Source of the DNA: Candidatus Curtissbacteria bacterium
GTDB taxonomy: Bacteria > Patescibacteriota > Microgenomatia > Curtissbacterales > GWA2-41-24
NCBI GenBank assembly: GCA_016183325.1
Contig: JACPEV010000009.1
Span: 1,303 to 65,302 of the forward strand
DNA length: 64,000 nt
Direction: 5' to 3'
The position numbers were made by a program, and so were the translations under genes. The notes under the pieces were generated by a model. It searched no databases. It was not told the origin of the DNA and worked only from the letters and a program-made list of their open reading frames with translations. Positions 19,431-22,200 of this stretch are shown here, piece by piece. Each line of letters opens with the position of its first letter. Position 1 is the stretch's first letter.

Positions 19431-20208
19431 TCGCATAAAAGCTATTCTTCTATCGGAGTTTTTTATAACAAAAAGATCCCTTGAGGTAATTATGGATCTA
19501 TTCTTCTTCTCGCTGATGGCCACAATCGTTTTCGGTTTCGTCTCGGTTTTCTTAGCAAGTTCCATCGACTCTACTGCTGCTCATTACCTTTTTCTCGGCA
19601 TAATACTTATGGAAGTTATTCGCGTTACCCAATACTCGATTTCGGTTTCAGCCCTTTGGGAAGTTTGGTCGAGAAATCTCAGCAATGTATTCATCACCCC
19701 TTTATCGCTCAAAGAATACCTTTTCGCTCTTTTTTTGTCCGGTGCTGCTAAATCACTTTTAACATTTACAGCAATCTCATTAATATCAACGCTCATTTTT
19801 AAGTTCAATATCTTCTCAGCATGTTTTCATAATCTTGCATTATATTTTGTAAATCTAACTATTTTTTCTTGGTCGATAGGCTTGTTCATTTTAGGTTTTA
19901 TTTTCCGTTTTGGAACCAGAATTCAAGCTCTTGCCTGGGGATTGATTTTTTTAGTTCAGCCCTTAACCGCCGCGTTTTTTCCAGTCAATATTTTACCGAG
20001 TCCACTACAAGTAATTGCTTACTCACTTCCGCCAACTTACATCTTCGAAGCTGCTCGGGGAAATTTGGAAAATCCTTCAGTTAATTGGAATTTAATAGGA
20101 ATGGCAGCAGCACTTAATATTTTCTATTTTGCCCTCGCCCTTTGGTTTTTCAACATTATGTTTAAAAAATCAAAACAAACCGGCCAATTCGCAAAACTAG
20201 AAGGGTAG
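19420..20208 (+). CDS. ABC-2 type transporter permease
   Basis: ~6-TM hydrophobic protein overlapping the ATPase gene. Confidence 0.75.
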   Translation: MSTDRIKAILLSEFFITKRSLEVIMDLFFFSLMATIVFGFVSVFLASSIDSTAAHYLFLGIILMEVIRVTQYSISVSALWEVWSRNLSNVFITPLSLKEYLFALFLSGAAKSLLTFTAISLISTLIFKFNIFSACFHNLALYFVNLTIFSWSIGLFILGFIFRFGTRIQALAWGLIFLVQPLTAAFFPVNILPSPLQVIAYSLPPTYIFEAARGNLENPSVNWNLIGMAAALNIFYFALALWFFNIMFKKSKQTGQFAKLEG

Positions 20209-20379
20209 CAAATCGACAATATTGGACGCTTATCCTGAGAAAATCGAAGGGAACTTCGAACAATTTTGTCTCAAATTACAGTTAGTGTCAAAGATTTTGA
20301 TTTTCTTTCGAGAAGCTGCCTAAAAGATTAATAACAGTTTTCTATATCCTTTTATCTATTAAAAATAATTTTGTCTTTT

Positions 20380-20661
20380 TTATACTTCTGTTATTTTACC
20401 CCTTTGTCTCAATATTTGTAGATATTCATTATTAGAAAGATCACATCTTTTGTAATCATTTAATCGTGTAATGCTTAAACCTAGTTGTTTTGCTATGAGT
20501 GGTATATCTTTATCCTTTATTCCTGAATGGGAGCGTTTGGTTTTAAGTATGTATTTATTTCGATAAAAAATGTGATAAAAATAATGGTCGTTAGTATCTT
20601 CTTCTACTGTAAAAACTTCTTTTAGTTTAGTAATTATCTGATTAAAATCATGGATTCTCAT
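20380..20661 (-). CDS. HicA-like putative toxin (93 aa)
   Basis: KRSHSGIKDKDIPLIAKQLGLS resembles the HicA/YcfA ...H...GTLksIlKQaGL C-terminal signature; last gene of a 3-gene minus-strand operon. Confidence 0.4.
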   Translation of the reverse strand: MRIHDFNQIITKLKEVFTVEEDTNDHYFYHIFYRNKYILKTKRSHSGIKDKDIPLIAKQLGLSITRLNDYKRCDLSNNEYLQILRQRGKITEV

Positions 20662-21044
20662 TACCTTACGTTTTCAAGATAGTCTCTTAAAAATTCCCAA
20701 TACTTCACAGCAGAAGGTCCAAGACGATTTTCACCCACATCTTTTAACTTTTTATACAATAAAGCAATTTGCAACTTAATATTAGCGAGTGCTTTTTCCA
20801 AATCTTTGTCTCTTGCCCATAATTCAAGCTCATTTTGTTCAACATAATAATCTTCTCCGTCGAAATTTACGTTGAAATATATGGGTTTATGTAAAAGTAA
20901 GTTGGAGTCCAGACTATAGATAGAATTAATACCTGCGATTGCTATGTCTGGGGCAATAAATTTAGGCGTACTATTAGATAAAGTTCCGACGCTGTAAATC
21001 CACTGACTGAACTCGTCGGATTTTTTAGTATAATTTATGTCCAT
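20661..21044 (-). CDS. HicB/UPF0150-like domain protein (putative antitoxin partner, 127 aa)
   Basis: HKPIYFNVNFDGEDYYVEQNELELWARDKDLEKALANIKLQIALL matches the HicB N-domain pattern kYpvv..e.d.GgY.a.vPdLpGc...G.TleEAlen.keAi; 1-nt start/stop overlap with the downstream gene. Confidence 0.4.
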   Translation of the reverse strand: MDINYTKKSDEFSQWIYSVGTLSNSTPKFIAPDIAIAGINSIYSLDSNLLLHKPIYFNVNFDGEDYYVEQNELELWARDKDLEKALANIKLQIALLYKKLKDVGENRLGPSAVKYWEFLRDYLENVR

Positions 21045-21046
21045 GG

Positions 21047-21334
21047 TTATTTATCCTCCTTTTTTTCCAGCTGGCTCCTAAGAGCTTCTAGAAATGCTTT
21101 TGCGATTTCTAAAGGTAAAACTATCTCTGACAACACTGGAATTCTTGTTTCTTTCTCTTTTTTTATTTTTTCTAATTCCCCTGGGTTAGCTGGTGGTTTT
21201 AGATCACAAAATTTTATAGATACATCTAAACCAGTTTTTGTTACCTCAACGTAGTTTGAATAAATACGCTGACTTCCGTCTGGGCGGTAAGCGATAATTT
21301 TTAATGGTACAGGCTGTTCATTTTTATTGGCCAT
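21047..21334 (-). CDS. DUF3467-like small protein (95 aa)
   Basis: YSNYVEVTKTGLDVSIKFCDL ... RIPVLSEIVLPLEIAKAFLEALRSQLEK fits the DUF3467 pattern from memory; first gene of the 3-gene operon. Confidence 0.35.
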   Translation of the reverse strand: MANKNEQPVPLKIIAYRPDGSQRIYSNYVEVTKTGLDVSIKFCDLKPPANPGELEKIKKEKETRIPVLSEIVLPLEIAKAFLEALRSQLEKKEDK

Positions 21335-21492
21335 ATCTCCCTTTTAGTCTGACCGAAAGATACCACAGTTGCAACAACTACTTCAAGAAGGGATCATTTT
21401 AACAACTCACATCCACTTCCGATGTGAACCAGCTTTGCACATCGGCAATTAATTACGAATCCAAAGTCGACAATACTGCACGAACTTCGAAT

Positions 21493-21612
21493 TTAAATAA
21501 TTGGTCGACCGAATTTTATTAAATTTTCTTTCTTTTCTCTTCGCCATTTTTTGATTTGAGCTTCCCTTTGTCTTGCTTTTTTCAGTGTAGGATATTCTTT
21601 ATATACGAGTCC
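21493..21612 (-). pseudogene. C-terminal remnant (~39 aa) of a small GIY-YIG (UPF0213-type) nuclease gene
   Basis: GLVYKEYPTLKKARQREAQIKKWRREKKENLIKFGRPII matches the GIY-YIG C-terminus (ELVYyEef.tkseAlkrEkqiKkWsRaKKeaLI). The upstream in-frame sequence is tRNA-derived (GSSPASPT); no GIY...YIG N-terminal half in any frame. Confidence 0.5.
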
Positions 21613-21615
21613 AAA

Positions 21616-21668
21616 AGTCGGAGAGGCGGGACTCGAACCCGCGACCCCCAGACCCCCAGCCTGGTGTG
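21616..21668 (-). other. tRNA-like 3' fragment (anticodon arm CCAGG-CTGGGGG-TCTGG, canonical T-arm GCGGGTTCGAGTCCCGC, 3' acceptor strand) with no 5' acceptor/D-arm
   Basis: Minus-strand reading ...CCAGGCTGGGGGTCTGGGGGTCGCGGGTTCGAGTCCCGCCTCTCCGA; no complementary GGAGAGG within 150 nt. Confidence 0.35.
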
Positions 21669-21671
21669 CTA

Positions 21672-21734
21672 GCCTCAGCCAAAGGCTGATCGTCCTCTGG
21701 ACAAAACTGTCAGCCAAAGGCTGATCGTCCTCTG
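21672..21734. repeat. Tandem duplication of a 28-nt unit (tcagccaaaggctgatcgtcctctggac x2, 7-nt spacer)
   Basis: Exact copies at 21672-21699 and 21707-21734, adjacent to the tRNA-like fragment. Confidence 0.8.
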
Positions 21735-21766
21735 GACGAAACTGGAAACAACAAATCTTGCTAAAT

Positions 21767-21843
21767 ATGTCGGGGTACTCGGTTCCGCCCCGAGGACCTC
21801 ACGCACCCCATGCGTGCGCTCTGCCTATCTGAGCTATACCCCG
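21767..21843 (-). tRNA. tRNA-Pro (anticodon GGG); T-loop non-canonical (GGCGGAA)
   Basis: Minus strand CGGGGTA-TA-GCTC-AGATAGGCA-GAGC-G-CACGC-ATGGGGT-GCGTG-AGGTC-CTCGG-GGCGGAA-CCGAG-TACCCCG-A; 7-bp acceptor, 4-bp D, 5-bp anticodon and 5-bp T stems all pair; no encoded CCA. Confidence 0.7.
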
Positions 21844-21959: not shown

Positions 21960-22200
21960 ATAACTCATGTTACGCAAACTTCCTTGTCATTCCCATGAAA
22001 ATGGGAATCTATATGCATAAAGAGTCGGGATTCCCGCTCTGGAATTAATAAATTCCGAGTCGTAGACTTACGCGGGAATGACAATGCGTAAGGTGAGATA
22101 ATAACTATGACGATACGAATCATCGTAGTTAAAGTTCGGCTGACCTTACCCCACTTTGGTAACAGATGATGATAGTCTTCAGATAAAAAGGGCAAAGTTC
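21960..22200. other. Highly structured ~240-nt noncoding region between tRNA-Pro and recA (multiple gggaat/attccc inverted repeats)
   Basis: ttacgca...ttgtcattccc (21963-21995) pairs with gggaatgacaa tgcgtaa (22073-22090); internal palindromes ggaattaataaattcc and acgatacgaatcatcgt; only a spurious 76-aa antisense ORF. Confidence 0.4.

Follow-up and report, generated by a model that had tools for sequence, protein, structure and literature searches.

A candidate mobile, tripartite toxin-antitoxin operon with a DUF3467 gene and a divergent HicA-family gene in Candidatus Curtissbacteria

Background

HicAB modules and tripartite toxin-antitoxin-chaperone (TAC) systems are already known, and both are close to the locus described here, a cassette of three small minus-strand genes (g1, g2 and g3) from a Candidatus Curtissbacteria bacterium, a member of the candidate phyla radiation (CPR; Microgenomates). 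The cassette lies in a stretch of 64,000 nt of contig JACPEV010000009.1 (assembly GCA_016183325.1), which is called the window in this text and to which all positions refer. Its first gene encodes a DUF3467 protein, the second a putative antitoxin and the third a putative toxin that is distantly related to HicA.

In TAC systems the genes are arranged in the order toxin, antitoxin, chaperone. The omega-epsilon-zeta systems have the order accessory, antitoxin, toxin, and their antitoxin has no DNA-binding domain of its own. Both features recur in paaR-paaA-parE, a three-component system with a separate regulator that is encoded first (PMC7167474). In TAC, one family of SecB-like chaperones serves HigBA, MqsRA and HicAB pairs by way of the chaperone addiction domain (ChAD), an antitoxin extension with little sequence conservation, which is transferable and also works when it is grafted N-terminally (PMC5105189). 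Methylomonas methanica, for example, has the system HicAB-SecB(TA) (PMC5105189; bioRxiv 10.1101/2024.02.24.581848). The extension depends on aromatic residues, and phage proteins can out-compete it for the chaperone, which triggers the toxin (bioRxiv 10.1101/2024.02.24.581848). Partner swapping on a larger scale has been described for the Panacea/NetFlax networks, where one domain family is combined with different toxin families and vice versa (PMC8832971, PMC10440598).

A compact cassette of three genes

The three genes are packed tightly: g1 and g2 are separated by a 2-nt gap (taaCCatg), and g2 and g3 overlap by 1 nt (taATGa). Shine-Dalgarno-like motifs precede g1 (GGGAG) and g2 (AGGAGG), and the GC content drops to 0.29–0.32 across g3 and g2. 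Identical proteins at NCBI are annotated as 'hypothetical'. Since homologues of g1, g2 and g3 with 54–78% identity keep the order and the spacing of the genes on independent contigs, we regard them as real genes and not as chance open reading frames (ORFs). An earlier note on this DNA had described three tightly packed minus-strand ORFs opposite the flanking housekeeping genes, which the ORF list and the sequence match exactly. It had also taken the first gene for a DUF3467 member, the second for a protein of HicB fold that has no recognisable DNA-binding domain, and the third for a HicA-like protein; these assignments are taken up below.

The third gene belongs to a long HicA clade

Close homologues of g3 are rare and fall into four clusters among 5.8 billion proteins. 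A profile of the g3 homologues led to at least 141 representative clusters (50% identity) in a library of 1.84 billion proteins, nearly all of them 85–110 aa long and matched over their full length. Designed β-propellers in the PDB ('Bagel') were also hit by this profile through the motif NDHY(L/F)Y, but with only about 3–5 bits per stretch, and were rejected as spurious. The long matches P0031, P0042 and P0127, which consist of several stretches, probably reflect the same DHYFYH/β-propeller artefact and do not belong in a census of the family.

The Pfam family HicA_toxin (PF07927) was matched by 22 of 70 aligned members of the g3 family (best E 1.9e-7), any other Pfam family by at most two of the 70. 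In profile-profile comparisons with hhalign, the 70-sequence family reached 85.8% probability against E. coli HicA alone (E 5.3e-6) and 95.9% against four solved HicA proteins (E 5e-9, 69 columns), the latter in an alignment that spans the entire HicA domain. The five-member close subfamily of g3 still gave 70.5% against the four solved proteins (E 3.9e-5). The reference sequences were checked and are identical to the PDB entries (6HPB_A for E. coli HicA, 1WHZ_A for TTHA1913). A search of the PDB sequences with a hidden Markov model of the g3 family did not reach the solved HicA proteins.

In the alignment, His26 of g3 is placed on His23 of E. coli HicA, the catalytic histidine. His26 lies within the DHYFYH motif, invariant in the g3 subfamily that is associated with three-gene arrays. 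An AlphaFold2 model of g3 built from the 70-sequence alignment was confident (predicted local distance difference test, pLDDT, 93.9; predicted template modelling score, pTM, 0.81) and displays the order α-β-β-β-α, followed by two additional C-terminal helices. An earlier model from four sequences had been mediocre (pLDDT 74.7), and a Foldseek search with it was uninformative. The transitive Pfam matches, the profile-profile comparison and the secondary-structure order of the model agree with each other, and with the HicA-like character that had been proposed for gene 3. Judged by profile similarity and predicted secondary-structure order, not by 3D superposition, g3 falls within the HicA superfamily, as a divergent protein with an extended C-terminus.

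All 70 members of this 'long HicA' family carry the C-terminal two-helix extension (residues 62–90 of g3), which is absent from canonical HicA. Within the extension, Cys73 is invariant and Tyr80 and Leu84 are near-invariant.

The second gene encodes the putative antitoxin

g2 has no match in Pfam, NCBIfam, PADLOC or PHROGs, its close homologues form only one other cluster, and a search of the PDB sequences with its profile yielded nothing meaningful. In the protein, a variable N-terminal extension rich in S/T/N and aromatic residues (about residues 1–41) precedes a C-terminal domain that is conserved over about 86 aa (42–127). This domain is encoded directly upstream of every long-HicA gene for which upstream sequence exists, in overlapping or abutting frames. 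The g2 profile recognised it in the most distant loci (E 2.7e-18 in L026, 4.4e-9 in L025 and 1.3e-6 in L024) and on contigs that are cut off (3e-10 in L015, 1e-6 in L108). The N-terminal region of these proteins ranges from about 30 to 110 residues, and its sequence differs among the loci. The g2 proteins are mostly acidic, with isoelectric points (pI) of 4.8–5.7, and the g3 proteins are basic (pI 9.3–9.7), as would fit a toxin-antitoxin pair. g2 therefore is very probably the cognate partner of the long HicA, and hence its antitoxin.

The relationship of g2 to HicB is less clear. For comparison, we used profiles of the HicB N-domain made from three solved sequences, or from 58 phage-borne sequences plus the solved ones. 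A full-length g2 profile of five sequences gave a probability of 0.2%. Profiles of the g2 domain with 10 or 11 sequences gave 3–5% (P 0.008–0.016, scores 16.4–17.9), which is below the level of significance in HH-suite. The alignment has the register that had been proposed for a HicB fold, with PIYFNVNF as β1, DYYVE as β2, LELWARD as β3 and DLEKALANIK as the helix. Its score lay above those of all 200 column shuffles (null mean 8.8, standard deviation 1.9, maximum 16.5), and 13 control comparisons with a reversed query or unrelated profiles stayed below it (6.6–14.1). PHD_like, an antitoxin family of Pfam, was weakly matched by two distant g2 members, with sub-threshold E-values of 0.004 and 0.011. 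The HicB assignment of the earlier note is thus weakly supported, with an alignment in the proposed register, no Pfam match and a low probability; a HicB-like neutralising domain in g2 appears plausible from these comparisons. The statement that gene 2 has no recognisable DNA-binding domain was borne out. Family scans of g2 and its relatives detected neither a ribbon-helix-helix (RHH) nor a helix-turn-helix (HTH) domain, and g2 ends about 30 residues past the conserved LGP motif.

DUF3467 heads two types of triads

With 30.7 bits, g1 exceeds the gathering cut-off of 25 bits for Pfam DUF3467 (PF11950; E 3.4e-7, model positions 4–85 of 92), which settles the family of gene 1, and its relatives are likewise annotated as PF11950. 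We found no match for g1 in NCBIfam, PADLOC or PHROGs, and no solved structural relative in sequence or profile searches of the PDB. The homologues of g1 with 41–76% identity are all located at the head of a three-gene array.

Triads of DUF3467, g2 and HicA with the same tight spacing were found in the window and in loci L001/2/3/16, L017, L005, L006/7, L014 and L018. These loci represent six or more lineages, and the genomic context varies among them. Their surroundings are unrelated, for example a ComM-like Mg-chelatase and a sigma-70 region-4 protein in one case, and a Cap4 nuclease, an XRE gene and a recombinase in another. The co-occurrence of DUF3467 and HicA in other genomes, which the earlier note had suggested as a check, is thus observed, and the genes form one unit, as it had claimed, in that the triad travels together in several lineages and contexts.

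A second type of triad has the same DUF3467 subfamily at its head (L008-11/L021, L012, L019, L020, L022, L023). These first proteins are 39–54% identical to g1 in the locus alignment (61% for P0010, which is L019-like). The middle gene encodes an unrelated protein of 77–93 aa, which is acidic in most loci, and the last gene a basic protein of about 92–103 aa wherever the contig extends that far; the L019 contig stops after the second gene. A profile of four of these last proteins (L012, L020, L022, L023) matched YoeB (7V5Y_E) over its full length (E 1.3e-3); single-sequence Pfam scans gave no confirmation of a RelE/ParE nature. In a neighbour-joining tree of g1, most triads of the second type form a clade that is nested in a grade of HicA-type triads. 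Such a topology would be expected if g1 stayed in place while the toxin-antitoxin pair behind it was exchanged.

Exchange is also seen in the other direction. The pair of g2 and long HicA follows other first genes, namely a DUF6941 gene (134 aa, E 8.7e-9) in L024 and a gene for a 204-aa protein in L026/27; in L024, L025 and L026/L027 a distant long-HicA gene stands third in the array, behind a gene with the g2 domain. L026 has a fourth gene that encodes a 159-aa membrane protein with weak similarity to PrsW proteases (E 0.008). Where the first gene is not DUF3467, the N-terminal extension of g2 differs in length and composition. In a descriptive comparison, the N-terminal 35 residues of the antitoxins in both types of DUF3467 triads were rich in S/T/N, low in charge and contained aromatic residues, with the divergent L023 as the exception; the antitoxin N-termini behind the first genes of L025 and L026 were more charged.

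Two findings go further than the earlier note: DUF3467 also heads triads with an unrelated, YoeB-like third gene, and the g2/HicA pair follows other first genes. g1 is an integral but modular component, and the same family serves HicA-type and YoeB-like triads. The structure of the genes, their assignment to families, the conserved synteny, the swapping of partners between modules and the mobile elements nearby (see further below) are shown by the data.

A proposed tripartite toxin-antitoxin-like operon and its alternatives

We interpret the cassette as an operon of CPR bacteria (Microgenomates) that moves horizontally and resembles type II toxin-antitoxin systems, but has three components, in which g1 is a swappable accessory that acts on the extension of g2. 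In our estimate this interpretation has an even chance of being correct. By homology, g3 most likely would be a small protein that inhibits growth by cleaving RNA, with the conserved His26 at work. The C-terminal domain of g2 (possibly HicB-N-like, with a β-β-β-α fold) would bind g3 and block it. g1, in turn, would bind the N-terminal extension of g2 and thereby control the folding or stability of g2; possibly, it also makes the toxin come free in response to a trigger, for instance infection by a phage. Of the hicBA-type module with an extra component that the earlier note had put forward, the family assignments and the synteny stand, and the HicB fold is weak; toxicity, neutralisation and above all the interaction of g1 with g2 are what we infer.

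TAC is the closest mechanistic precedent. As in TAC, there are three genes, and a single accessory family occurs together with toxin-antitoxin pairs that are not related to each other (HicA-like and YoeB-like ones in our case). The antitoxins carry an extra, poorly conserved extension that contains aromatic residues, and a stand-alone DUF3467 gene (L013) is reminiscent of the housekeeping SecB that exists beside SecB(TA). By analogy, g1 probably is the partner of the variable N-terminal extension of the antitoxin. The fact that a ChAD grafted to the N-terminus is active (PMC5105189) makes the N-terminal position in g2 compatible with a TAC-like mechanism.

When compared with HicAB of E. coli (PDB 6HPB), the cassette shares a small basic toxin-like protein of α-β-β-β-α order, homologous by profile-profile comparison and with an aligned histidine, and an adjacent small acidic partner, whose conserved domain gives a weak, in-register alignment to the N-domain of HicB. 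It differs from HicAB in the putative toxin, since g3 has about 30 additional C-terminal residues (two helices with the invariant Cys73) and escapes the Pfam model. It also differs in the antitoxin: the g2 gene lies upstream of the toxin gene, and in the protein the putative neutralising domain is C-terminal, preceded by the variable extension and not accompanied by an RHH or HTH domain. Finally, the cassette always comes with a third gene. Partner swapping is shared with the Panacea/NetFlax networks, but in the cassette it is a third protein, encoded by its own gene, and not the antitoxin domain that changes partners. DUF3467 and DUF6941 are not mentioned in three supplementary text files of NetFlax.

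Several observations weigh against our interpretation. The order accessory, antitoxin, toxin agrees with the regulator-first systems and not with TAC, and the extension of g2 is N-terminal with a conserved C-terminus, whereas the ChAD of TAC antitoxins is C-terminal. The accessory, moreover, is a DUF3467 protein for which we could not detect any similarity to SecB; an hhalign comparison of 15 DUF3467 sequences with SecB from E. coli and H. influenzae gave a probability of 0.3% and thus no support for homology. In the absence of SecB similarity, and with the accessory first and the extension N-terminal, the cassette is not a member of TAC. This comparison and the searches for a solved relative by sequence provide no sign that supports a chaperone role of DUF3467. 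The comparison of N-terminal compositions is a descriptive one, and the similarity between g2 and HicB is sub-significant, as mentioned above. g3 itself has no match in Pfam or NCBIfam (both at E up to 10), nor in PADLOC or PHROGs. A Foldseek search of the PDB with the confident g3 model did not bring up a HicA structure at a significant level; the best E-value was 0.15. Matches in BFVD were not significant either: 'HicA-like toxin' and double-stranded RNA-binding domain (dsRBD)/RNase III proteins come at E 0.13–0.2, with the HicA-like toxins no higher than ranks 32 and 36 (E 0.17–0.18).

A bolder version of our interpretation would see in DUF3467 a new class of chaperone or adaptor dedicated to toxin-antitoxin systems. 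This class would have no detectable relation to SecB and would hold a disordered N-terminal 'addiction' extension, and the pair of long HicA and g2 would recruit interchangeable first-gene sensors (DUF3467, DUF6941 and others). We consider this version possible, though on the doubtful side.

The main rival explanation accepts the same HicA-type pair, but takes g1 for a dedicated transcriptional autoregulator, like omega or PaaR, that supplies the DNA binding that g2 lacks. It is attractive because g1 is always the first gene and because most relatives have strong promoter-like motifs just upstream of it, of the type TTGAC(A/T)...TAATAAT/GATAAT/TATAAT. It would also account for the missing DNA-binding domain in g2, which sets it apart from E. 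coli HicB, where the C-terminal part matches an XRE-family protein, and the order of the genes and the nature of the antitoxin are those of paaR-paaA-parE and omega-epsilon-zeta. Most g1 proteins have a near-neutral to basic pI; two are acidic (pI 4.9–5.3). However, g1 has no match to any DNA-binding family in Pfam or NCBIfam, and no HTH, RHH or AbrB motif is recognisable in DUF3467, in contrast to these regulator-first systems, from which the toxin families also differ. Nor could we find a conserved operator upstream of g1 across the loci. Even where g1 is 73–77% identical (window versus L001/L017), the upstream regions have neither a palindrome that resembles an operator nor any other sequence in common. 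L006/7 has an XRE HTH gene of its own directly upstream of g1, and in L013, an Acidobacteriota genome, a stand-alone DUF3467 gene is found with no small gene pair behind it. On the whole, a role as autoregulator seems unlikely, if not strongly so.

It is also conceivable that g2 and HicA form a plain two-gene toxin-antitoxin pair, and that DUF3467 is a co-transcribed passenger of unrelated function, in which case the system would not be tripartite. The family DUF3467 is broad and has at least one stand-alone member (L013), and the g2/HicA pair exists without it. However, g1 is kept at a gap of 0–4 nt or with an overlap in every triad, over a range of 31–77% g1 identity and in different contexts, and the same subfamily is retained before a different toxin-like pair. 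Where DUF3467 is absent, another first gene is present instead of none, and the N-terminal extension of g2 varies with the type of the first gene. A mere passenger therefore seems improbable.

Slightly less probable still is a non-toxic RNA-binding or regulatory complex, borne by mobile elements to some other end, in which the HicA-like dsRBD fold serves for binding only: the histidine aligned with the catalytic one is not kept across the 70-member long-HicA family (P0019, P0078, P0081 and P0084, for example, lack it) and g3 of the window has no direct match to a HicA profile, but the DH(Y/H) motif does not vary in the subfamily found in triads, the parallel triad has a YoeB/RelE-like protein in the same position, and an overlapping pair of an acidic and then a basic protein, with a patchy distribution and with a recombinase and insertion sequence (IS) elements nearby, is typical of toxin-antitoxin modules.

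Novelty and implications

In the literature that we searched, there is no description of a toxin-antitoxin triad headed by DUF3467, of a long-HicA clade with an antitoxin that lacks a DNA-binding domain, or of a combinatorial exchange of first genes. DUF3467 is mentioned only incidentally there, in unrelated work, and DUF6941 not at all. The cassette, with three genes on less than 1 kb, would give a first functional context for the widespread family DUF3467, and it defines a clade of long HicA proteins that comprises at least 141 clusters and has its own non-canonical putative antitoxin.

If our interpretation is correct, the tripartite organisation of toxin-antitoxin systems is not limited to SecB-like chaperones, and there would be a second, independent accessory family that is combined with at least two toxin families. 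If the first genes indeed are sensors, 'adaptor-antitoxin-toxin' would be a widespread architecture in CPR and other uncultured bacteria, possibly used for phage sensing. CPR hosts are uncultured and have tiny genomes, so that there are few ways to approach the biology of their phages and plasmids; mobile modules of the toxin-antitoxin or defence type offer one.

Genomic neighbourhood and signs of mobility

The features around the cassette are listed in Table 1. On the plus strand, it is flanked by genes for S9, an ABC ATPase and an ABC-2 permease (ending at 20208) on one side, and by those for RecA (from 22261) and RecX on the other. The candidate promoter of g1 was read from the sequence and scores below the threshold of the promoter scan, so that it is at best a tentative one. 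The hairpin downstream of g3 is also terminator-like on the plus strand, where it follows the convergent ABC permease gene.

Table 1. Positions of the cassette genes and of neighbouring features in the window
Feature	Position	Strand	Description
g1	21334..21047	minus	95 aa, DUF3467, first in cassette, proposed accessory third component
g2	21044..20661	minus	127 aa, acidic, pI 5.0, proposed antitoxin
g3	20661..20380	minus	93 aa, basic, pI 9.4, divergent 'long' HicA-family putative toxin
Weak sigma-70-like promoter candidate	21357..21386	minus	TTGAAG, 18 nt, TATCTT; 8/12 matches, upstream of g1
Terminator-like hairpin	20244..20259	minus	TCGAAGTTCCCTTCGA followed by TTTTCTC, downstream of g3
tRNA-Pro (anticodon GGG)	21843..21770	minus	Rfam RF00005, 43 bits (gathering cut-off 29), E 1.3e-7
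Partial second tRNA-Pro-like gene	21618..21672	minus	anticodon arm GGG, canonical T-arm, 3' acceptor strand CTCTCCGA, no 5' half
GIY-YIG nuclease remnant	21493..21606	minus	C-terminal part only; Pfam E 0.0088, profile positions 51-78 of 78
Split direct repeat, upstream copy	21464..21491	none	TTCGAAGTT + CGTGCAGTATTGTCGACTT (minus strand)
Split direct repeat, downstream copy	20210..20260	none	TTCGAAGTT, 23-nt insert, CGTCCAATATTGTCGATTT; right after the ABC permease stop

The earlier note had placed the cassette next to a tRNA-Pro gene, at a tRNA-adjacent integration hotspot. The tRNA-Pro(GGG) is indeed present, 436 nt upstream of the start of g1, but was seen only by Rfam in E-value mode on a 1-kb stretch; neither ARAGORN nor an Rfam scan in gathering mode reported a tRNA in the 64-kb window. 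Its T-loop, GGCGGAA, is atypical when compared with the usual TTCGAAT-like sequence, and it may therefore be a degenerate or unusual tRNA.

Between this tRNA and g1, the T-arm of the partial second tRNA-Pro was detected by Rfam as the 3' end of a tmRNA or tRNA. Two perfect 28-nt repeats in tandem (35-nt period) come before this partial gene, each with a terminator-like hairpin TCAGCC-TTT-GGCTGA. The repeats and the tRNA fragment lie within 21618–21745, are both unique in the window, and may represent a recombination scar or the remnant of an attachment (att) site. An ORF on the minus strand (21493–21717) begins within the tRNA-like fragment, and its similarity to the C-terminal end of GIY-YIG nuclease domains is confined to about the last 40 residues; it probably is a truncated GIY-YIG pseudogene. 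The two copies of the split direct repeat bracket the cassette, with 16 of 19 positions matching between their 19-mers, and may mark the boundaries of an insertion. The 23-nt insert in the downstream copy completes the terminator-like hairpin that is read on both strands. We found no recombinase ORF between 20209 and 21770 in the window.

Genes of mobile elements lie next to the triad in some of the related loci. In L006/7, a large serine recombinase of 549 aa is encoded about 0.3 kb downstream of the triad, and the 3' end of its gene overlaps a tRNA-Pro(CGG) by about 20 nt. IS1595 transposase genes immediately follow the triads of L020 and L022, and an rve-type gene lies downstream of that in L018. 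The recombinase with its tRNA-Pro, together with the partial tRNA-Pro and the flanking repeats of the window, lends support to the proposed hotspot, and the arrangement would fit a cassette that is the cargo of a decayed integrative element at tRNA-Pro. A search for an att-type repeat in L006 found no copy of the tRNA 3' end within the 10-kb locus. Searches of phage, plasmid and IMG/VR collections did not return relatives.

The triad of L006/7 is part of an apparent defence or mobile island (968–7928 in L006), with an AAA_23 protein and a Cap4-type nuclease encoded upstream. In the window, the region between the tRNA-Pro and recA has only weak, chance-level matches to Rfam (FtrB, E 1.3), and at 21960–22090 it contains several hairpins or palindromes that include the sequence GGGAAT, for example CATTCCCATGAAAATGGGAATC.

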